This document shows, piece after piece, positions 11,225 through 49,566 of a stretch of DNA of 64,000 nucleotides. The position numbers and the translations under genes are program-made. Position 1 is the first letter of the stretch; every line of letters begins with the position of its first letter. The notes beneath the pieces were generated by a model. It was not told the origin of the DNA, searched no databases, and saw nothing but the letters and a program-made list of their open reading frames with translations. This stretch comes from Krischvirus LF73P4. The DNA lies in sequence record OZ035795.1, one strand, 5' to 3'.

Positions 11225-13903
11225 ATGTATTTTCTGTCATGTGAGCGAGTGGGTGATAAGATCTACGAGCGTTATATTGATGATGCTGGACAAGAACAAG
11301 AGCGTTACGTTGAATATACGCCAACTTTATTTCATCATGCCGCGCCCGGTATGGTTACGAATTATAAAGATATCTATGGCAAGCCTTGCATTGCTAAAAA
11401 ATTCCCATCTATGAACGAGGCCAACAAATGGCGTAAAAAGATGGGAGAAATGGGGCAGGAGGCACTAGGGATGGATGATTTTATCATCTCCTATCTGTCC
11501 GATACATATAAAGGCGAGATTCGATATGACCGAAATAAAATCCGTGTAGCCTGGGTTGATATTGAGGTCACTGCACCGGAATTTCCTAAACCAGAAGAAG
11601 CGAAATATCCTATCGATGCTATTACGCATTATGATTCCGTACATGATCGTTTCTTTGTATTTGATTTGAAAGGAAAAAACGGTGAAATCTGGGAAGCAAG
11701 CAAGTCTATTCTTCGACCTGATATTGTAGAGCGCGTTGTTTATAACGTCTATGACACAGAAGATGAATTGCTGTTAGAATACATCCGATTCTTTGAGGAA
11801 AACCGACCCGTTGGTTTCACTGGCTGGAACACAGAAACATTCGATATTCCATATATCATTAAACGTATCAGTAATAAGTTCGGAAGTAGAACCGCTAACC
11901 GTCTAAGCCCATGCGGTAAGATTAAATCCCGAATCTCGCAGGATGATTTTGGCAACGAGCGTGAAGCATTTACGATCATGGGGATCGAAAGCCTTGATTA
12001 TATTGACCTGTACAAGAAATTTAGCTTTACGACTCAACCAACATATGCATTAGATTATGTTGCTGAATATGAGACCGGAATCGGTAAGGTTGATTATGAT
12101 GGTCCGTTAAAGAAATTGCGTGATGACAACCATCAACTTTACATCGATTATAACATCGGCGACGTTGATCGTGTGCTGGCGATTGATAAAAAGCGTGGAT
12201 TTATCGATCTTGTGTATAGTCTATGTTTCTATGCAAAGATTAAATTTAACCATGTTTATAACCCGATGAAAGTATGGGATGCTATTATCTTCGGATCTCT
12301 GAAAGCAGAGGGTAAAGTAGTACCGGAAAATAAGATACAGCCTAAGCAGACTTATCCTGGCGCATTCGTAAAAGAACCTGTACCGAATGCTTACCGTTGG
12401 ATGATGAGCTTTGACTTAACAAGTCTGTACCCATCTATTATTCGACAGGTTAATATTTCTCCTGAAACAATCGCTGGATCTTTTGATGCTGCACCGATGC
12501 ACGAGTATATCAATAAAACTGCACCACGTCCGAGTGATGAGTATTCTTGCTCGCCTAACGGATGGATGTATAGAAAAGATATTCACGGTATCGTACCGAT
12601 TGAGATTAAAAAGGTATTCGATCAGCGTAAGCAGTACAAAAACATGATGTTGGCATGTGATCGCAATGCTGAACTCTGTAAAGCGATTCTACACGATGAA
12701 AATCATGTTTATGGGGGAACCATTAGCTATAGCGTTGAAGTGCGTCACGACTTCGATGAAGCGTTTAAATCGATGCTTTCTGAATTGAGCAAAGATGCCT
12801 TAGAGAAATTGCTGGAAGAATGTAAAGACGAGTCGATCTTGTGCAATACAAACCAGCTTTCTCGAAAAGTTTTGATCAACTCCCTTTATGGTGCGTTGGG
12901 GAATCCTAAATTCCGTTTTTATGATCTCCGTAACGCTAGTGCGATCACACTGTTCGGTCAGCTTGCAATTCAGTGGATTGAGCGTAAGATTAACGAATAC
13001 TTAAACGAGCTTTGCGGAACGACTGATTTTGCATATGTTCGTTATTGTGATACTGACTCCGTTTATGTGCTGGTTAACAATGTTATTGATAAGGTTGGCG
13101 GGGAAGACCGTTTCGACGATACCGAAAAACTTGTTGACTTCCTTGATAATTTCGGTAAACATCGAATGGAACCTATTATCGACAAGGGATATCGCGAGTT
13201 ATGCGAGTACATGAACAACTATGAGCACTTGATGTTTATGGACCGTGAGGCAATTGCTGGTCCTCCGTTGAAATCTGCGGGTATCGGTGGATTCTGGACT
13301 GGTAAAAAGCGTTATGCTCTTAATGTTTGGGATATGGAAGGAACGCGCTTTGCTGAACCTAAGCTAAAAATCATGGGCTTGGAAACGCAACGTAGCTCCA
13401 CCCCTAAAGCATGTCAGAAATCACTGAAAGAATGTATTCGCCGTATGTTGCAGGAAGGTGAAGAGTCATTGCAGGAATACTACGGTATTTTTGAGCAAGA
13501 ATTTAGAAAACTTGACTATCTTGATGTTGCTGCGGTATCATCTGCAAACAACCTACAGAAATACAGCGATTCAAACGGGTATCCGATTAAGGGTTGTCCG
13601 TATGCGGTTAAGAGTGTATTGTGTTATAATCGTAATGCTCGAAAATTCGGACTAGACCCGATTCGTGAGGGTGAGAAGGTTATGATTGTACCGCTTAAAG
13701 ACCGAAATCCGTTTGGAGAAATCTGTTTTGGTTGGTTGTCTGGTACTCGTATTCCACCAGAAATTGAATCAGAGGTGTTGAAGTGGTTGGACTGGCCTTT
13801 GTTGTTTAATAAGACTTTCGTCAAACCACTGGAGAACATTACCACGGCTGCAAAGCTGCAATATGAAAAAGTTGCTTCACTGACTGACCTGTTTGACATT
13901 TAA
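11225..13903 (+). CDS. 43: DNA polymerase gp43 (family B)
   Basis: ATG 11225 after AAGGAG; ...ERYIDD.G.E; exo motifs; SFDLTSLYPSIIRQVNISPET; NSLYGALGN; YCDTDSVYV match recalled T4 gp43. Confidence 0.95.
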   Translation: MYFLSCERVGDKIYERYIDDAGQEQERYVEYTPTLFHHAAPGMVTNYKDIYGKPCIAKKFPSMNEANKWRKKMGEMGQEALGMDDFIISYLSDTYKGEIRYDRNKIRVAWVDIEVTAPEFPKPEEAKYPIDAITHYDSVHDRFFVFDLKGKNGEIWEASKSILRPDIVERVVYNVYDTEDELLLEYIRFFEENRPVGFTGWNTETFDIPYIIKRISNKFGSRTANRLSPCGKIKSRISQDDFGNEREAFTIMGIESLDYIDLYKKFSFTTQPTYALDYVAEYETGIGKVDYDGPLKKLRDDNHQLYIDYNIGDVDRVLAIDKKRGFIDLVYSLCFYAKIKFNHVYNPMKVWDAIIFGSLKAEGKVVPENKIQPKQTYPGAFVKEPVPNAYRWMMSFDLTSLYPSIIRQVNISPETIAGSFDAAPMHEYINKTAPRPSDEYSCSPNGWMYRKDIHGIVPIEIKKVFDQRKQYKNMMLACDRNAELCKAILHDENHVYGGTISYSVEVRHDFDEAFKSMLSELSKDALEKLLEECKDESILCNTNQLSRKVLINSLYGALGNPKFRFYDLRNASAITLFGQLAIQWIERKINEYLNELCGTTDFAYVRYCDTDSVYVLVNNVIDKVGGEDRFDDTEKLVDFLDNFGKHRMEPIIDKGYRELCEYMNNYEHLMFMDREAIAGPPLKSAGIGGFWTGKKRYALNVWDMEGTRFAEPKLKIMGLETQRSSTPKACQKSLKECIRRMLQEGEESLQEYYGIFEQEFRKLDYLDVAAVSSANNLQKYSDSNGYPIKGCPYAVKSVLCYNRNARKFGLDPIREGEKVMIVPLKDRNPFGEICFGWLSGTRIPPEIESEVLKWLDWPLLFNKTFVKPLENITTAAKLQYEKVASLTDLFDI

Positions 13904-15290: not shown

Positions 15291-15608
15291 ATGGATAAGA
15301 AACCAACAAGTTTAGAAGAAGCACACAGCTTGATTCAAGAAGCAATGAAGACAGTTATCCAGGAACTGATAATTGTTGATGAAGAGGGAGAACATCATAT
15401 TGTCTATATTCATAATGTTGAATACGATCCAGACACTAAAGGTATTATGGTCGACTACTCCACGCCGTCAGATCGTGATGTGGTATATCCACACGTCATT
15501 AAGGCGTTAACCGCGCAGATCAAAGAAGCAGAAGAAAAGTTGAAAAAAGAAACTTTCTGGTATAAACTCAAGACCTTTGTTATGCGTGTAGTTGGGGGCT
15601 ATGTATGA
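15291..15608 (+). CDS. hypothetical protein (between uvsX and 41, where T4 has gene 40)
   Basis: 105-aa ORF, overlaps gene 41 start; positional inference only. Confidence 0.45.
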   Translation: MDKKPTSLEEAHSLIQEAMKTVIQELIIVDEEGEHHIVYIHNVEYDPDTKGIMVDYSTPSDRDVVYPHVIKALTAQIKEAEEKLKKETFWYKLKTFVMRVVGGYV

Positions 15609-17017
15609 TTAAAACTATCTTTTCACAGTTGATTTACAATGGCGCATTCTTTACGAATGTATGGCCTCACCTTAAAGCGGACTACTTCACCGAAGACGAA
15701 GAAAAACTGATTTATAAGCTGATTAAAAAGCACGTAGACGAATATTCCAATATTCCTACGCCAACAGCATTACAGATTGCTTTAGACAAGGAGAGAGGCA
15801 ATCAGACAACATATGAAGGGGCGAAAACTCTTCTTGATTCGCTTGAGAATACACCGGAAGACCTTGATTGGTTAATGAAGGAAACCGAAAAATTTATTCG
15901 TGACCGCGCTATGTATAATGCAATGTCACGGGCGCTAGAGATTCAGGCGAACGCACAACTACCAAAAGAGAAACAGAATAAGAAATTGCCTAGTGAGGGC
16001 GCTATTCCTGAAATTATGCAGGAAGCACTATCCATTACGTTTGATTCTGATGTAGGTCATGACTGGTTTAATGACTTTGAAAAACGATTCTTGCTATATC
16101 AGACTAAGGCGAATAAGATCCCATTTAAGCTGCCGATGTTGAATAAAATCACGAAAGGAGGGGCGGAAAGAAAAACGCTAAATGTGTTGCTTGCTGGTGT
16201 AAACGTTGGTAAATCGCTTGGATTGTGTTCTCTTGCTGCGGATTATATGGAATGTGGTTATGATGTATTGTATATCTCAATGGAGATGGCAGAGCATGTC
16301 GTAGCCAAACGTATCGACGCAAACTTGCTTGACATTACATTAGATGAATTGGATAATGGTAATGTTTCTTTTGCGGAATATTCCGCACGCATGAAGCGTG
16401 TTAAGAATAAGAAGATCGGGGATCGTCCGGTTGGAAAATTGATGATCAAGCAGTATCCGACTGGTGGCGCGAACTCCAATCACTTTGAGGCGTTAATGAA
16501 TGAATTGCGACTCAAGAAACAGTTTAAACCTGATGTTGTGATTGTTGACTATCTTGGGATTTGCGCATCGTCTCGCTTGCGTGTATACTCTGAAAATAGT
16601 TACACACTAGTTAAGGCGATTGCGGAAGAACTGCGAGGATTTTTTGTTAAGTGGGATGTTGTTGGTTGGACTGCGGCACAGACTACCCGCGCTGGTTGGG
16701 ATGCTTCCGACCTTAACATGAGTGATACCGCTGAATCAGCAGGTCTTCCGGCTACAGCCGACTTTATGTTGGGTGTTATCGAAACCGAAGACCTGGCTAA
16801 AATGGGCGTCCAACTCATGAAGCAGATCAAGTCTCGTTACGGTGATAAGAACTATTATTCACGGTTTAACGTTGGTGTGAAGAAAGGCAATCAGCGTTGG
16901 TATGAAGTACCAAACCAGATCGCAGATCAGGAGAACGCACAAGTTAAACCACAAAGCGCACAGCAAGCCGAGAAACGCGAAAAACTCGACGAGCTAGCAA
17001 ATACCATGACTTTCTAA
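15605..17017 (+). CDS. 41: replicative DNA helicase gp41 (DnaB-like)
   Basis: 470 aa; KIPFKLPMLNKITKGGAE..TLNVL.AGVNVGKSLGLCSLAADY; DYLGIC; SRYGDKN match recalled T4 gp41. Confidence 0.9.
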   Translation: MIKTIFSQLIYNGAFFTNVWPHLKADYFTEDEEKLIYKLIKKHVDEYSNIPTPTALQIALDKERGNQTTYEGAKTLLDSLENTPEDLDWLMKETEKFIRDRAMYNAMSRALEIQANAQLPKEKQNKKLPSEGAIPEIMQEALSITFDSDVGHDWFNDFEKRFLLYQTKANKIPFKLPMLNKITKGGAERKTLNVLLAGVNVGKSLGLCSLAADYMECGYDVLYISMEMAEHVVAKRIDANLLDITLDELDNGNVSFAEYSARMKRVKNKKIGDRPVGKLMIKQYPTGGANSNHFEALMNELRLKKQFKPDVVIVDYLGICASSRLRVYSENSYTLVKAIAEELRGFFVKWDVVGWTAAQTTRAGWDASDLNMSDTAESAGLPATADFMLGVIETEDLAKMGVQLMKQIKSRYGDKNYYSRFNVGVKKGNQRWYEVPNQIADQENAQVKPQSAQQAEKREKLDELANTMTF

Positions 17018-17026
17018 TAAAATGCG

Positions 17027-17045
17027 CCCTACGGGGCGCTGGTGA
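17027..17045 (+). terminator. stem-loop after gene 41
   Basis: GCGCCCTACGGGGCGC hairpin; weak U-tract. Confidence 0.35.
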
Positions 17046-17067
17046 ATGATTTGATAGGAGATATAAC

Positions 17068-17703
17068 ATGATCGCTAATGCTTTACCGCCAAAATGGATC
17101 GTAAGTCGCTTTTATACTCTCAAGGAAGGTAACGCACCTGATGGTCGTCCGATCCGAGATCTGTTTCTGGAGATGACTACAGCCGAAGCACAGTTTTATA
17201 ATGATCTGACAGACGATAAGCCATTTCTCGTAAATTCGGTGGACCTCGATGGCAATGTCACATCAATCATCACACATGGTGGGGGAGTGAAAAATATTAC
17301 TTCTCTGCGTGATCACGGTTGGGAAATTGCTTGTGTATTTCCTGCGGATGTACGCGGATTCTTTGATGAGGTATCTGATATTAAAGTAAATGCACTGGAA
17401 CCATATGACGAGATCCCACCACTGAAAGAAGAAAAAGAGTTGACACCGGAAGATGTAGATAGTACACTACACCCCGACCTATTTAAGAAGATTAGCGGTT
17501 TATGGACTGTTACCCTGTATCCAACCGCATTAGGTCTAGAATTGGGTATGCCAACTTATTCTGATATTGATAATTGGACTAAGCATATTGATAAAGATGT
17601 TGAAAAACAGCGAAATAATGCTAAAATGCAACTTAAAGAGAAACGCAAAGATCTTGAACGACAACTGAAAGAAACAAAACGTTTGCTTTCTACATTCGCT
17701 TGA
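17068..17703 (+). CDS. hypothetical protein
   Basis: 211-aa ORF between 41 and 61, coiled-coil C-terminus. Confidence 0.5.
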   Translation: MIANALPPKWIVSRFYTLKEGNAPDGRPIRDLFLEMTTAEAQFYNDLTDDKPFLVNSVDLDGNVTSIITHGGGVKNITSLRDHGWEIACVFPADVRGFFDEVSDIKVNALEPYDEIPPLKEEKELTPEDVDSTLHPDLFKKISGLWTVTLYPTALGLELGMPTYSDIDNWTKHIDKDVEKQRNNAKMQLKEKRKDLERQLKETKRLLSTFA

Positions 17704-17733
17704 TCTATAATGAAACTCTAAGGAGACTATATT

Positions 17734-18111
17734 ATGAAAAATATGATTACGCCGGAAGATGTAGCATTCAAAACCGCATTCAACGGAGATATTCTTATTT
17801 TTATCGACGGTAAACACGCCGGAATGATTGAACAGGAAGGTCGCTGGGGTGTTGCTGAACTATATAACGTGGCGGGTGTAGAAGGTCATAAAACAGCACT
17901 TGTTTTCTTGTCGGATAAAGATCAAATGCGTCGAAAAATTGCTGCGCTCTATAATGAAGCAGTATATTTCTACGAACCGTTTCATCGTATTAAAACGATC
18001 TCCCGCGTGACTCGAAAAGATGTTAATGCTTGTGTTATCAAGATTGTAGAGAATCAGGATAAACTGACGAAAGACCAGATTGTTGACTTACTGAAAGAGA
18101 TTATTCTATGA
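17734..18111 (+). CDS. hypothetical protein
   Basis: 125-aa ORF, TATAAT -10 about 25 nt upstream. Confidence 0.5.
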   Translation: MKNMITPEDVAFKTAFNGDILIFIDGKHAGMIEQEGRWGVAELYNVAGVEGHKTALVFLSDKDQMRRKIAALYNEAVYFYEPFHRIKTISRVTRKDVNACVIKIVENQDKLTKDQIVDLLKEIIL

Positions 18112-18284
18112 TTGGATTTAAACAGTTTGTTGAAGAAAATAAACTCAAAGAAGATATGACCGCTGGCGATGCTGGCGGCAATCCTGAGAAGATCGCAGCA
18201 GGTGAAACGAGCGGATCTATTACCAATCGTGGACCTAGTGTAGCGGGTAAAGAAAAACGCAAAAAGGAGAAAGACGGTGCTTAG
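18108..18284 (+). CDS. hypothetical 58-aa protein
   Basis: Not in track; ATGA overlap with upstream stop; MIGFKQFVEENKLKEDMTAGDAGGNPEK... Confidence 0.3.
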   Translation: MIGFKQFVEENKLKEDMTAGDAGGNPEKIAAGETSGSITNRGPSVAGKEKRKKEKDGA

Positions 18285-18291
18285 TATCATC

Positions 18292-18435
18292 ATGTTTATC
18301 GTTGGCTTGCTGTCCGCTATTATCGGTGTTGTTATTTTCGGATTATCTGGACACAAAACAAAAACAGAAAAGTTATCCGAGATCACAATGTATGTTGGTG
18401 TAGTTCTCATTCTGTTGTCGGTGGCGCTTAAATGA
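18292..18435 (+). CDS. hypothetical 47-aa membrane peptide (two hydrophobic segments)
   Basis: Not in track; MFIVGLLSAIIGVVIFGLSGHKTKTEKLSEITMYVGVVLILLSVALK; stop overlaps next ATG. Confidence 0.3.
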   Translation: MFIVGLLSAIIGVVIFGLSGHKTKTEKLSEITMYVGVVLILLSVALK

Positions 18436-18635
18436 TTACGATGAAATGTCTTAAAAGCACATATGCACTTTTTGAAGCCGGAAAAGAATATGAATTTACA
18501 GAACTTGACCCGGTAGGCCGTTTTCGTGTATTCTCTTACACATCGCCAGATGGTAGTGTCTACAAATTTGGATTAGATGAGAACGGAGAGAATGAAAATG
18601 AAAGTGTAGGAACTTTCATGAAATTTGAGCTATAA
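18432..18635 (+). CDS. hypothetical protein
   Basis: 67-aa ORF. Confidence 0.4.
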   Translation: MITMKCLKSTYALFEAGKEYEFTELDPVGRFRVFSYTSPDGSVYKFGLDENGENENESVGTFMKFEL

Positions 18636-18644
18636 GAGGTTATT

Positions 18645-19673
18645 ATGATTTACTACGCAGATTATGAAATAGCGGAAAAAGCCATATACGGCGAACGAAA
18701 TTTTAAACGGTTGCATACTAGCTCATTTACGCTGGTCTGTAGTTGTCCGATCTGCGGTGACTCAAAGAAAAATCATACTCAAGCGCGATTCCGTATCTAT
18801 ACCTATAAGGATAGTTTGCGTTGTGGTTGTTTCAACTGTAACTACAATCAGCCGTTAGGTGAATTTCTCAAACAGTATAAACCGGACCTATTCAGGGAAT
18901 GGCTTATGGAGAGACGGAAGGAACAAGGCGACCACAAGAACACCACGTTCAAGCCACTGAAAAAGGTAGAAAAGCCGGAGATTAAGAAAGTGCAAACATT
19001 GCCTTTCTGCGAGAGATTAGATACTCTTCCGGCTAATCATCCTATAATAAAGTATGTCAGTGATCGTTGCATCCCTCACGATAAATGGGATCTTCTGTAT
19101 TTCACGAGAGAATGGCAAAAGGTAGCAAATCACATTAAGGCTGATACTTTCAAGAACCCACAACCTGAACCGCGTTTAGTGATTCCTATCTTTAACCGCG
19201 AGAACAAGATAGAATCCATTCAGGGGCGAGCATTGAGAAAGGATTACGGAAAGACCAAATATATGACGATTAAAACTCATGAGTTAGCGAGTAAGGTCTA
19301 TGGTCTTGAACGCGCCGATCCGAGTAAGCCAGTGTATTTCTTAGAAGGTCCGATCGATTCATTGTTTATTGATAACGGGTGTGCAATTACTGGCGGTACT
19401 TTGGGATTAGATGAAATACCTTTCCCAGACCAGCGAGTGTTTGTACTTGATGCGGAACCACGGTCTGCCGATACAATGCACCGACTGGAAAAGTTTATCA
19501 ATGCAGGGGAAAAGATTGTATTGTGGGACCGTTGCCCGTGGCATTCTAAAGACGTTAACGCCATGATTCAGGACGAGGGCGCTACACGCGACCAGATCAT
19601 GGAATATATCAAAGAGAACACCGTACAAGGTCTGATGGCTAAAATGCGGTTTATGAAATATTGTAAATTTTAA
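18645..19673 (+). CDS. 61: DNA primase gp61
   Basis: 342 aa; N-terminal zinc-binding CPICGDSKK..H...C..C, TOPRIM-like C-terminal half; follows 41 as in T4. Confidence 0.85.
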   Translation: MIYYADYEIAEKAIYGERNFKRLHTSSFTLVCSCPICGDSKKNHTQARFRIYTYKDSLRCGCFNCNYNQPLGEFLKQYKPDLFREWLMERRKEQGDHKNTTFKPLKKVEKPEIKKVQTLPFCERLDTLPANHPIIKYVSDRCIPHDKWDLLYFTREWQKVANHIKADTFKNPQPEPRLVIPIFNRENKIESIQGRALRKDYGKTKYMTIKTHELASKVYGLERADPSKPVYFLEGPIDSLFIDNGCAITGGTLGLDEIPFPDQRVFVLDAEPRSADTMHRLEKFINAGEKIVLWDRCPWHSKDVNAMIQDEGATRDQIMEYIKENTVQGLMAKMRFMKYCKF

Positions 19674-47766: not shown

Positions 47767-49566
47767 ATGCTAATGTTTAATAACTCCGTTAAATGGTTTA
47801 CCGGAATTGTAGAAAACAGGGAAGATCCATTAATGTTAGGCCGAGTTCAGGTTAGGATTCATGGTATACATCCCTCGCTATCCGCACACGGTGACATTCA
47901 AGGTCTTCCAACCGAAGATCTACTATGGATTACGCCAGTACAAGATATTACAAGCGCGGCGATCTCCGGTATAGGTCAAAGCCCTACTGGTATTGTTGAA
48001 GGTTCAATGGTATTTGGTTTGGCTTTAGATGAACGTTATTTAAACTGCGTTATTCTTGGTACTATTGCCGGACAATATACAGAGAAACCACTCACTACAG
48101 AAGGTTTTTGCGACCCTTCTGGTGCATATCCTCGTTATATTGGTAATGATGTTAATATTCTTGCTCGTGGCGGTATTAACCCAGAAACCGGGCAAACAAC
48201 AAAACCTGATAGTGTCTATATTCGAGATGAAAACACTGGAGTTGCAGTAAATCCAGACGACGAGCCATTAGATCAAATTCCGGTTGATGATAATCCTGAT
48301 TTTACAATAGAAAAAATGCTGCGTGGCGATGAGGGGTATCGCGAGAAATGGTATCTTGATTCAGAAGGATATCCGACAATAGGCATCGGGCATCTGATCA
48401 TTTATAAGAAAACCAGTGATCTTGGTATTATCAATAATGAACTTTCTAAGCTGGTAGGGCGTGAAGTTACAAACGGAAGACTTACTGCCGAAGAAGTTAG
48501 TAAAGTATTTGCTGACGATATAGAAAAGACTCGTCGTGATATGCGCAAACATCCACGAATTGCACCTGTCTATAATAAATGTAATGCCTCACGTCGTATG
48601 GCATTAGAAAATATGGCGTTTCAAATGGGTGTTGGTGGATTGGGTAAATTTAAGAATAGTCTTGCTGCGATGTTAGCGGAAGAATGGAAACAAGCCTATG
48701 ATGGATTACGTCAATCTGTATGGGCTAACCAAACTCCAGGACGATCCAGCCGTGTTTCTAAAATTATTTTAACTGGTAACTTAGAATCATATGGCGTAAT
48801 TGCTCCAAAGAAAGAGGAATCAATTTCGGATGATCCGCGAGCACGTTTAAGAAATGCCCGTATTGCTGCCTATAAGACGCAGAGAGCAGAAGAAGACCCA
48901 GAAGCACCGTTTACCCCACAAGACACACGAATCATGTTTAAAGAGCCTAAGAGTTCGTATTCTGCAAGGTATCCTTATAACCATGTGTACGAGTCAGAGA
49001 GCGGTCATATTATCGAGATTGATGATACTCCTTCTCATGAGCGATATCATCGTAAACATCCTTCTGGTACATTTGAAGAAACCAGACCGGACGGAACGAG
49101 GGTAGAAAAGATTGAAGGTGATGACTATTTGATCGTTAAGCAAGGCCGCAAAGTCAACGTTAAAGGCAATCTGCAAGTTGTTGTTGAAGGTGACGCGCAA
49201 GTTTATTATATGGGTAATGTAATGCAAACCGTTGATGGTAACGTCACGGAATTTATTCGTGGCAATGTTAATCAGACCGTTGAGGGTACAGCTAATATGC
49301 ATGTTGTAGGTGATGTTACCGCACAGCTTGACGCTAATTTGACGGCTAACGTCAAGGGTAATGCTGAATTAATGATCGAGGGTAACACTACCGAAACAAT
49401 TAAAGGTAACTATGATTTAACCGTTGAGGGTAATTTTAATATGACCGTCAATGGCACTAAATCAGATCAGGTTAATGGTGACTGGTCCCGTAATTGTGGT
49501 GCAAGCGTTAAAGATATTGCATCTGGTACAGTTAAAATTGATGGTAGCCGTATTGATCTTGGGTGA
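47767..49566 (+). CDS. 5: baseplate central spike/lysozyme gp5
   Basis: 599 aa; N-terminal OB domain, central lysozyme domain (EGYREKWYLDSEGYPTIGIGHLI), C-terminal V.G....-type beta-helix repeats (VKGN, VEGD, VDGN, VEGT, VKGN, IEGN, VEGN, VNGT). Confidence 0.9.
   Translation: MLMFNNSVKWFTGIVENREDPLMLGRVQVRIHGIHPSLSAHGDIQGLPTEDLLWITPVQDITSAAISGIGQSPTGIVEGSMVFGLALDERYLNCVILGTIAGQYTEKPLTTEGFCDPSGAYPRYIGNDVNILARGGINPETGQTTKPDSVYIRDENTGVAVNPDDEPLDQIPVDDNPDFTIEKMLRGDEGYREKWYLDSEGYPTIGIGHLIIYKKTSDLGIINNELSKLVGREVTNGRLTAEEVSKVFADDIEKTRRDMRKHPRIAPVYNKCNASRRMALENMAFQMGVGGLGKFKNSLAAMLAEEWKQAYDGLRQSVWANQTPGRSSRVSKIILTGNLESYGVIAPKKEESISDDPRARLRNARIAAYKTQRAEEDPEAPFTPQDTRIMFKEPKSSYSARYPYNHVYESESGHIIEIDDTPSHERYHRKHPSGTFEETRPDGTRVEKIEGDDYLIVKQGRKVNVKGNLQVVVEGDAQVYYMGNVMQTVDGNVTEFIRGNVNQTVEGTANMHVVGDVTAQLDANLTANVKGNAELMIEGNTTETIKGNYDLTVEGNFNMTVNGTKSDQVNGDWSRNCGASVKDIASGTVKIDGSRIDLG

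Follow-up and report, generated by a model that had tools for sequence, protein, structure and literature searches.

In bacteriophage T4, the replicative helicase gene 41 and the primase gene 61 are separated by a run of five small genes (dmd, 61.4/tifA, sp, 61.2/adfA and 61.1). This slot has been termed the 'anti-TA island', and three of its products, Dmd, TifA and AdfA, are proven anti-toxin factors (PMC9391042). The same interval of phage RB49 (NC_005066 / AY343333) is already annotated with dc2, dc1, 61.1, ORF018c and ORF017c, and these five genes entered GenBank some 20 years ago. The names dc1 and dc2 probably come from work by Desplats in 2002. Here we analyze the corresponding region of Krischvirus LF73P4 within a window of 64,000 nt (the whole stretch of DNA studied, record OZ035795.1), which belongs to an RB49-like phage with 98.8% DNA identity to RB49 and in which all genes considered lie on the + strand. 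Positions 17068-18635 almost certainly constitute the RB49-type filling of a variable accessory slot between genes 41 and 61 of T4-like phages (Straboviridae).

Layout of the 41-61 interval and its counterparts

From the end of gene 41 (17017) to the start of gene 61 (18645) there is a gap of 1,627 bp that holds five small, intact genes, as the initial annotation had described for a stretch of about 1.6 kb:

15605..17017, + strand: gene 41, replicative helicase, 470 aa, upstream flank (Pfam DnaB_C 3.5e-11, phrog_19 2.8e-128)
17024..17039, + strand: GC-rich hairpin GCGCCC-UACG-GGGCGC, directly 3' of gene 41
17068..17703, + strand: dc2, 211 aa (RB49 name)
17440..17468, + strand: candidate sigma-70-like promoter TTGACA-17-TACACT inside dc2 (sequence scan)
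17600..17627, + strand: candidate sigma-70-like promoter TTGAAA-16-TAAAAT with TG, inside dc2 (sequence scan)
17683..17711, + strand: candidate promoter TTGCTT, 17-bp spacer, TATAAT, spanning the dc2 stop, 22 nt before the dc1 ATG
17734..18111, + strand: dc1, 125 aa (annotated Dc1 in RB49; phrog_16174)
18108..18284, + strand: 61.1, 58 aa, ortholog of T4 61.1 (phrog_1823 5e-24)
18277..18435 (GTG, 52 aa) or from ATG 18292 (47 aa), + strand: two-TM hairpin membrane peptide, RB49 ORF018c (phrog_18360)
18432..18635, + strand: 67-aa acidic soluble protein, RB49 ORF017c (phrog_9181)
18645..19673, + strand: gene 61, primase, 342 aa, downstream flank (phrog_47 1.8e-90)

The flanking gp41 and gp61 are 57% and 51% identical to their T4 counterparts, and the interval resembles the T4 island in slot, direction and size (~1.6 kb, five small early genes). 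Gene 61.1 is present in both and is the only gene that they have in common by sequence; in T4 it abuts gene 61, whereas two genes intervene here. The initial annotation had taken genes 41 and 61 to be adjacent in T4, had placed the T4 61.x cluster downstream of gene 61 and had read the five genes as an insertion. Both statements on T4 were mistaken, since the T4 cluster lies in this very interval, and the impression of an insertion is a product of the wrong map, so that the finding as first written matters little. Relative to RB49, the gene set and order are identical, DNA identity across 41-61 is 98.6-98.8%, the proteins are 96-100% identical and the differences are point differences only. 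The cluster is present in all 58 Krischvirus records, each of its five genes being conserved in 57-58 of them; to these records dc2, dc1 and the membrane peptide are restricted among phage records, their other homologs coming from metagenomic relatives. The cluster is thus made up of ordinary accessory genes that were already known and is not a new insertion.

The contents of the slot were also compared in CC31, Acj61, an Aeromonas phage and a KVP40-like phage. Gene 61.1 is the sole resident shared by every lineage examined, and the slot is at its simplest in KVP40-like phages (41-61.1-61) and in the relative L009 (41-dc2-61.1-61), which has no dc1. Throughout the RB49 superclade dc2 stands immediately 3' of gene 41 and dc1 before 61.1; dc1 and 61.1 are usually kept in uncultured and metagenomic relatives. 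Neither dc2 nor dc1 occurs in T4, CC31, Acinetobacter or Aeromonas phages, which have the same primosome, and T4 and CC31 keep sp in the slot. The membrane peptide and the 67-aa gene were added recently, between 61.1 and 61, and only in the branch of RB49 and the divergent relative L005. In some Krischviruses an HNH endonuclease gene follows the 67-aa gene and precedes gene 61. Just past genes 61-56, the relatives L009 and L010 carry Tad2-like (over the Pfam cutoff) and Mom-like genes; a Tad2-like tblastn match in our own window (48907-49041) was judged spurious, being weak (E 8e-4 within the window only). It was also observed that dc2 is strictly tied to gene 41, even where gp41 is only 67% identical, which would fit a replication-related role too.

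Expression signals and selection

The hairpin at 17024..17039 has no T-run on the + strand and was therefore rejected as a terminator; it is better described as an intercistronic stem-loop. For RB49, no terminator is predicted from uvsX/40 through 56/modB (Nolan 2006). The two candidate promoters inside dc2 coincide with early promoters predicted in RB49, the first with Pe:12270 (RB49 12220-12270, window 17426-17476) and the second with Pe:12110 (window 17586-17635) (Nolan 2006). Before the 125-aa ORF, the initial annotation had noted a promoter with a MotA-box-like element. The TATAAT (17706-17711) and TTTGCTTTC (17682-17690) are both there, but the reading as a MotA-dependent middle promoter was rejected. 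The Mot box consensus, (a/t)(a/t)(a/t)TGCTTtA, stands 11-13 bp before TAtaAT (quoted in Nolan 2006), whereas here TGCTT occupies 17684-17688, the box would end at 17690 and TATAAT begins at 17706, a spacing of 15 bp, or of 17 bp if TTGCTT is read as a -35 hexamer. RB49, moreover, has neither a motA ortholog nor the middle-promoter consensus (Nolan 2006, citing Desplats 2002). As RB49-type phages have no MotA, the element upstream of dc1 is better read as a candidate sigma-70 early promoter. It falls under the scanner threshold, its -35 matching at 3 of 6 positions. The TATAAT is kept as TGTATAAT in L005, although the surrounding non-coding DNA has changed; the -35 part lies within conserved LLSTFA codons, so its conservation tells little.

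Each of the five ORFs has a good Shine-Dalgarno sequence or a coupled start. The ATGA stop/start overlaps by which the mini-ORFs were said to be chained were found at 18108-18111 and 18432-18435, while the junction of 61.1 with the membrane peptide is of another kind, either a 7-nt gap to ATG 18292 or an 8-nt overlap of GTG 18277 with 61.1. RB49 is annotated with the ATG start (47 aa). The GTG start, giving 52 aa, seems better supported and is the more likely on sequence grounds, since an AAGGAG (18263-18268) lies 8 nt upstream of it and JSE and GEC-3S have an ATG at the aligned position.

The five genes are under purifying selection, with dN/dS of 0.07-0.42 that persists even where dS reaches ~1-3, and they diverge much faster than genes 41 and 61 (dN/dS 0.01-0.05). 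Every genome compared has all five ORFs intact, with dN/dS below 1, which argues that they are more than chance ORFs. In keeping with the initial annotation, the mini-ORFs proved conserved among relatives and carry no assigned housekeeping function there. Alleles have been replaced in the membrane peptide and dc1, where dS is 0.3-1.0 against 0.05 in flanking genes. Dc2 is 25-45% identical across relatives in which gp41 is 67-87% identical.

The encoded proteins

Scans of the five ORFs and the region with Pfam, NCBIfam, PADLOC and Rfam returned nothing beyond noise, and neither Dc2, Dc1 nor 61.1 has a paralog within the window. The 211-aa and 125-aa proteins were first listed as being of unknown function; no function could be given to them or to the other three products, but both genes already bore the names dc2 and dc1 in RB49. 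The prediction for Dc2 is an N-terminal barrel of SH3-like type (~10-104), then a disordered acidic linker in which the motif PPLKEEKELTPEDV is conserved, and a C-terminal part comprising a small module and a long helix (172-210). The AF2 model had a pLDDT of 44.5 on a shallow alignment and of 71 (moderate confidence) after distant homologs were added, and fold searches with it returned weak SH3-like matches and uncharacterised phage proteins, and nothing else, the small beta-barrels considered for the N-domain being of the SH3-like, Tudor and FeoA kinds. In an exhaustive HMMER run of the Dc2 profile, the two large matches (P0042 and P0043) were set aside as repeat artefacts, in which 'VNDSDVDG' cadherin-like and ankyrin repeats align to one short motif.

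Profile searches of the PDB gave nothing significant for Dc1 or Dc2, and Dc1 has no Pfam, PDB or profile match. The dc1 gene has a strong Shine-Dalgarno sequence (AAGGAG) upstream and a dN/dS of 0.07 against L005. Homologs of Dc1 that are 36-67% identical occur in L005, L007 and L010, each directly 5' of 61.1, and in phage FL15 dc1 is annotated as two split ORFs.

The two hydrophobic segments reported for the 47-aa peptide are present, at residues 1-26 and 32-52 in the 52-aa numbering, with a basic loop, GHKTKTEK, between them; TM segments are likewise predicted for RB49 ORF018c (Nolan 2006). The peptide is restricted to Krischvirus and L005 and exists as two alleles with 63% identity and dS ~1. 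The T4 superinfection-exclusion proteins Imm and Sp are small membrane or periplasmic early proteins, and the 52-aa peptide is likewise an early-region product with two membrane segments; it shares no sequence similarity with them and has no signal peptide. The likeness is one of possible mode and not of family. The 67-aa protein is 97-100% conserved in Krischvirus and 81% in L005 (dN/dS 0.15), and homologs with 46-60% identity occur in small-ORF arrays of T1-like Drexlerviridae (siphoviruses).

The 61.1 product belongs to the T4 gp61.1 family, matching phrog_1823 over residues 1-56 (E 5e-24) with 49% identity to T4 gp61.1; RB49 labels it 'similar to T4 61.1'. Its gene lies 360 nt upstream of gene 61 and occupies the same interval in T4, CC31, the Aeromonas phage, the KVP40-like phage and metagenomic relatives. 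By tblastn it matches 1,505 phage records, mostly at two places each, the second being gene 23. The family profile matches residues 59-101 of T4 gp23 in the PDB (E 3.2e-9), and tblastn against annotated major capsid genes gives E down to 1e-7. On these alignments, 61.1 is a free-standing copy of about residues 55-101 of the gp23 major capsid precursor, spanning the maturation cleavage site. It aligns with gp23 (PDB 6uzc, 7vs5, 5vf3) at 44-49% identity, and both have a hydrophobic-x-Glu at the cleavage site and the motif AGD.G...IAxGxTxGA(I/V).N.GP. Unlike gp23, gp61.1 has no HK97-fold body and nothing equivalent to residues 1-54, and it ends in a Lys/Arg-rich tail at the point where gp23 continues with MVRRAIPNL. 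In CC31, Acj61 and KVP40-like phages the protein is longer (154-159 aa) and has an unrelated domain at its N terminus. The 'major capsid protein' labels that 61.1 bears in some GenBank records are over-annotation, given its 58 aa and a match to gp23 59-101 only.

For 61.1 alone, this match raises the possibility of capsid mimicry, in which the peptide would bind the portal, the scaffold/protease or the chaperonin (timing head assembly), undergo cleavage and packaging, or act early on as a decoy for a capsid-sensing host system. We regard this as possible but doubtful. The significant gp23 homology speaks for it, as do a P3-hydrophobic/P1-Glu pair aligned with the gp23 LTE|A site in all five lineages inspected (the Glu being invariant), the presence of 61.1 in ~1,500 genomes and its place in one operon with the head-assembly gene 40. 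Yet 61.1 sits among early genes and head assembly is late, and five lineages, the number in which 61.1 was compared with its own gp23, do not suffice to reveal co-variation. Also counted against mimicry is that Lit is activated by the Gol region of gp23, which lies immediately C-terminal of the copied segment. The combined proposal that 61.1 mimics the N-terminal segment of gp23 with a retained gp21 cleavage motif, and that Dc2 and Dc1 may represent novel counter-defence proteins in the Krischvirus counterpart of the T4 anti-TA island, is likewise tentative and rather improbable. If mimicry were true, it would represent a previously unrecognised layer of T4 biology: 61.1 might be an early decoy for capsid-sensing immunity, might regulate the prohead protease or portal or be its substrate, or might be packaged as a DNA-binding peptide. 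The match itself gives a concrete, testable idea for a gene that has since at least 2006 been listed as a conserved ORF without an assigned function.

Possible roles of the cluster

The reading that we favour for the cluster as a whole, and that we place slightly above even, is that of an RB49-type filling of the variable slot, expressed early and encoding small binding proteins with a host-interaction or counter-defence role. The five genes would be expressed early, through read-through from upstream and from sigma-70-type promoters within or just past dc2, with no involvement of MotA, and the ATGA and GTG overlaps would couple their translation. The products, none of which has a recognizable catalytic domain, would be small non-enzymatic binding proteins, Dc2 joining its predicted barrel and acidic disordered linker to a coiled-coil helix. 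Their most likely role would be a conditionally useful host interaction, neutralising defence toxins or effectors in the manner of T4 Dmd, TifA and AdfA. The membrane hairpin peptide would probably act at the inner membrane, for instance by excluding superinfecting phages or by countering a membrane-acting defence.

The functional part of this reading, counter-defence or host interaction, has in our judgement close to an even chance. The anti-toxins of the T4 slot, together with the Tad2-like and Mom-like genes downstream in relatives, make it a reasonable guess. The T4 proteins have demonstrated anti-toxin activity, whereas the Krischvirus genes are likened to them by position. Compared with Dmd, TifA, Sp and AdfA, the Dc2, Dc1, membrane-peptide and 67-aa sequences gave best BLASTP E values of at least 0.2, and hhalign probabilities for Dc2 and Dc1 against the T4 proteins did not exceed 1.6%, indicating no similarity; Dc2 and Dc1 did not resemble each other either. 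The cluster therefore agrees with the T4 anti-TA island proteins in position and not in homology. Since none of the four proteins has a sequence, profile or fold link to known anti-defence or host-takeover proteins, the functional assignment follows from position and gene style only, and it is on position that the initial annotation's suggestion of such a role stands.

An unlikely alternative is that Dc2, Dc1 and 61.1 serve the gp41-gp61 primosome as accessory subunits or regulators peculiar to a lineage, acting for example in helicase loading or primase stoichiometry. Their placement would suit this, with dc2 directly 3' of gene 41 in every lineage found, dc1/61.1 before gene 61, and 61.1 between or beside 41 and 61 from KVP40-like phages through T4, as would co-transcription with replication genes, no terminator being predicted between. 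Tight co-evolution is, however, not apparent in the divergence of Dc2 relative to gp41 given above; phages with the same primosome lack dc2 and dc1, L009 has no dc1, and the gene is annotated as split in FL15. That the small ORFs lack any function, being remnants or hitch-hikers left in a recombination hot spot by exchange and homing-endonuclease traffic and kept by linkage alone, is very improbable, for although slot contents vary among lineages, an HNH gene neighbours the cluster in some Krischviruses and alleles of the membrane peptide and dc1 have been replaced, all five ORFs are intact in the genomes compared, constrained even at high dS, provided with translation starts and conserved in nearly all Krischvirus records.

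Krischviruses are used in phage therapy collections. Since their slot corresponds in position to the T4 island from which Dmd, TifA and AdfA came, counter-defence screens could sensibly and cheaply include dc2, dc1, the membrane peptide and the 67-aa gene.

Composition and conservation of the 41-61 interval

The gap between helicase gene 41 and primase gene 61 of Krischvirus LF73P4 is occupied by an ordinary, genus-wide accessory gene set that had been annotated previously and that lies in a known variable slot. The five plus-strand ORFs that the initial annotation described in a gap of about 1.6 kb are present as described, and the gap, from the end of gene 41 (17017) to the start of gene 61 (18645), measures 1,627 bp.

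Small ORFs between genes 41 and 61
17068-17703, + strand: dc2, 211 aa
17734-18111, + strand: dc1, 125 aa
18108-18284, + strand: 61.1, 58 aa
18292-18435 (ATG start, 47 aa) or 18277-18435 (GTG start, 52 aa), + strand: membrane (TM) peptide, ORF018c
18432-18635, + strand: 67-aa ORF, ORF017c

A DNA search with positions 15605-19673 matched 58 records, all of them Krischvirus (Straboviridae) phages with E. coli or Shigella as hosts, including RB49 at 98.8% identity (window = 29696 - RB49 position). The order around the slot is uvsX, 40, 41, the five small ORFs, 61, 56, modB, srd and dda. The cluster is real and conserved but not new, since the RB49 records (NC_005066, AY343333) already label it dc2, dc1, 61.1 ("similar to T4"), ORF018c and ORF017c, and the JSE record annotates the same genes under identical names.

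Its presentation as an insertion relative to T4 stemmed from an incorrect T4 map, in which 41 and 61 were adjacent and the 61.x cluster lay downstream of 61. The T4 record reads, in the direction of transcription, uvsX, 40, 41, dmd, 61.4, sp, 61.2, 61.1, 61, dam and 56, placing the 61.x cluster in the same 41-61 interval as the five ORFs, at about equal size. Only the 58-aa ORF is common to both phages (phrog_1823 match, 5e-24; 49% identity to T4 gp61.1), and Nolan 2006 lists 61.1 as one of the ORFs without assigned function that were conserved throughout the T4-like genomes compared there.

All five ORFs are intact in the window, RB49, JSE, GEC-3S, Whisky and a divergent metagenomic contig (L005), and tblastn with each gave hits to 57-58 of the 58 Krischvirus records. 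In comparison with L005, whose synonymous sites are almost saturated, the dN/dS values are 0.28 for dc2, 0.07 for dc1, 0.18 for 61.1, 0.42 for the TM peptide and 0.15 for the 67-aa gene; within the genus, genes 41 and 61 yield 0.01-0.05. Intact frames and these ratios mark the five ORFs, on comparative grounds, as coding genes under purifying selection, but with looser constraint or a higher pace of change than in the replication genes. In phage FL15, dc1 is annotated as two ORFs (L014:2330-2422 and 2419-2703; span 2330-2703), the cause being a frameshift or else a sequencing error; if the split is real, dc1 is dispensable in that phage.

Slot residents across lineages and the similarity of 61.1 to gp23

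An exhaustive HMMER search of 1.84 billion proteins with a Dc2 profile returned only seven true representatives of the family, including those on uncultured relatives of RB49; two large hits were rejected as repeat artefacts.

Contents of the 41-61 slot (percentages, identity)
CC31: 41, hypothetical ORF, sp-like, three hypothetical ORFs, long 61.1, 61
Aeromonas phage (GomatiRiver_11): 41, 61.1, hypothetical ORF, 61
KVP40-like vibriophage: helicase, 61.1, primase
Acj61: run of small ORFs, long 61.1, 61
L005, uncultured (partial gp41 87%): 41, dc2 45%, dc1 67%, 61.1 64%, TM peptide 34%, 64-aa ORF 81%, 61 81%
L007/L008, uncultured (gp41 79%): 41, dc2 35%, two unrelated ORFs, dc1 47%, 61.1 48%, 61
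L009, uncultured (gp41 74%): 41, dc2 25%, 61.1, 61
L010/L011, uncultured (gp41 67%): 41, dc2 28%, one unrelated ORF, dc1 36%, 61.1 40%, 61

Because gene 41 lies immediately 5' of dc2 in every Dc2-homolog contig that could be read, gene order identifies dc2 as the gene that, in the RB49 superclade, anchors the slot beside gene 41; dc1 usually precedes 61.1. The TM peptide and 67-aa genes are recent additions between 61.1 and 61. Homologs of the latter (46-60% identity) occur in small-ORF arrays of T1-like Drexlerviridae, which points to a small accessory gene exchanged horizontally. In Whisky (L015:3247-3810), KMB43, TB34, SAP and Cognac, the 67-aa gene is separated from 61 by an additional ORF of 187 aa, which the window lacks and which related records annotate as an HNH homing endonuclease.

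The only resident present in every lineage examined is 61.1. As a tblastn query, the 58-aa protein matched 1,505 phage records, most often with two hits per record, and a major capsid protein annotation is attached to many of the features hit. Searched against PDB, a profile built from six 61.1 sequences recovered T4 gp23 (E 3.2e-9), with profile positions 4-46 corresponding to gp23 precursor residues 59-101 (residues 4-36 of mature gp23*), and residues 13-51 of 61.1 are 49% identical to residues 62-100 of RB49 gp23. An alignment of five lineages reveals a motif common to both proteins, AGD.G...IAxGxTxGA(I/V).N.GP, and places a hydrophobic-x-Glu with invariant Glu in every 61.1 (KLKE|DM in the window, FIKE|DM in T4) at the position of gp23 maturation cleavage (LTE|AEIGGD, the boundary taken from 456-residue mature chains in PDB). 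The consensus of the gp21 protease is L/I-x-E. On this sequence evidence, gp61.1 has its homologous counterpart in residues ~55-101 of the gp23 precursor, the segment spanning the maturation cleavage site. Past the common segment the proteins differ, gp23 running on into MVRRAIPNL and 61.1 ending in a Lys/Arg-rich tail. In CC31, Acj61 and KVP40-like phages, 61.1 is longer (154-159 aa, phrog_2086) and has an additional domain at the N-terminus.

We found no discussion of this resemblance in the literature searched, where gp61.1 is mentioned in gene tables only; the resemblance opens to testing an ORF long known to be conserved but without an assigned function. The "major capsid protein" label on 61.1 in some GenBank records is an over-annotation. 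RB49 gene 23 itself lies at L004:5279-6865. The extra domain of long 61.1 (CC31, L018:3207-3671; Acj61, L019:3177-3656) spans ~100 aa and has no Pfam match; in the KVP40-like vibriophage, a 159-aa 61.1 is listed between helicase and primase.

Gene starts and expression signals

The initial annotation had the mini-ORFs chained by ATGA overlaps, which holds for dc1 and 61.1 (18108-18111) and for the TM peptide and 67-aa ORF (18432-18435) but not for the junction of 61.1 with the TM peptide. The ATG at 18292, the start used there and in RB49, lacks a Shine-Dalgarno sequence. The TM peptide is probably a 52-aa product starting at GTG 18277, because this codon has AAGGAG 8 nt upstream and an 8-nt overlap with the 61.1 stop, aligns with the ATG start annotated in JSE and GEC-3S, and adds five residues conserved in kind. 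Each of the remaining ORFs has either a coupled start or a ribosome-binding site that can be recognised. Two hydrophobic segments were rightly noted: in 52-aa numbering, stretches 1-26 and 32-52 flank a basic loop, and Nolan et al. 2006 likewise predicted two for RB49 ORF018c. The peptide has two alleles; the JSE/GEC-3S type is 63% identical, and its dS of ~1 against ~0.05 in flanking genes indicates allele replacement by recombination.

Promoter-like sites
17683-17688 (TTGCTT), 17-bp spacer, 17706-17711 (TATAAT), + strand: candidate sigma-70 promoter
17440-17468 and 17600-17627, inside dc2: coincide with early promoters predicted in RB49 (Nolan 2006)

A MotA-box-like reading of the element preceding dc1 is moot, since RB49 has neither a motA ortholog nor a middle-promoter consensus (Nolan 2006); a weak sigma-70 promoter is a good reading of the element. 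L005 keeps the TATAAT, as TGTATAAT, with the non-coding DNA after it changed (+27 bp). Conservation of the -35 part is uninformative because it sits within the conserved LLSTFA codons of dc2. No terminators were predicted from 40/uvsX to 56/modB in RB49 (Nolan 2006), and a hairpin directly after gene 41 (17024-17039; perfect 6-bp GC stem, UACG tetraloop) has no T-run on the plus strand. We infer that the cluster is co-transcribed early with the replication genes and is also served by internal promoters. The same hairpin scores as a terminator on the minus strand, where there are no nearby genes.

Dc2 and the possible role of the cluster

Dc2, Dc1, the TM peptide and the 67-aa protein have no matches in Pfam, NCBIfam, PADLOC or PDB sequences, and an Rfam scan of the region returned no elements. 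An AF2 model of Dc2 computed with distant homologs added to the alignment (pLDDT 71) has a beta-rich domain at the N-terminus (residues ~10-104, pLDDT about 80-86), an acidic disordered linker (105-132) with the conserved motif PPLKEEKELTPEDV, then a small module and, at the C-terminus, a long helix (172-210). Searching BFVD with this model gave 35 hits at E <=1e-3, all uncharacterised T4-like phage proteins, other Krischvirus proteins included.

Residents of the T4 slot include Dmd (anti-RnlA), TifA (anti-ToxN) and AdfA (anti-DarT); the slot has been termed an anti-TA island, and its other genes "attractive anti-toxin candidates" (PMC9391042). Neither BLASTP nor profile comparison linked the four LF73P4 cluster proteins other than 61.1 to Dmd, TifA, Sp or AdfA. 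Just downstream of 61-56, Tad2-like genes (28 bits, Pfam cutoff 25) occur in two uncultured RB49 relatives, L009 and L010, and L010 also has a Mom-like gene (L009:10465-10746; L010:12108-12380 and L010:11255-11884). Tad2 is anti-Thoeris, and this neighbourhood has the look of a counter-defence cargo hot spot. The five genes, presumably early, are small, fast evolving, lineage-restricted, partly exchanged horizontally and devoid of catalytic domains. Given the T4 anti-TA slot, these neighbours and this gene style, we put at roughly even odds that the cluster is a host-interaction or counter-defence set, a reading from position and gene style, not homology. Its products would be conditionally useful binding proteins, and the membrane hairpin would act at the inner membrane. 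The main rival, a primosome-accessory role, is suggested by the strict 41-dc2 linkage, but Dc2 diverges fast and most T4-like phages lack dc2 and dc1. The value of the cluster lies in sharing its position with the T4 anti-TA island and in the 61.1-gp23 resemblance.

Between the window and GEC-3S or Whisky (L013, L015), Dc2 differs by 13-14 non-synonymous against 4 synonymous changes (dN/dS ~1), and in a wider alignment variation falls mainly in or beside the disordered linker (residues ~100-136), which fits relaxed or diversifying selection there. The relative bearing the Mom-like gene also has an N6/N4 methyltransferase; at that place the window has no counterpart of these Tad2-like, Mom-like and methyltransferase genes. 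A 27-nt direct repeat (17432-17458 and 17738-17764) is 78% identical and includes an exact 13-nt core, CCGGAAGATGTAG. One copy encodes LTPEDV within the linker of Dc2, the other ITPEDV at the N-terminus of Dc1; the repeat could be chance, a common peptide motif or recombination microhomology.
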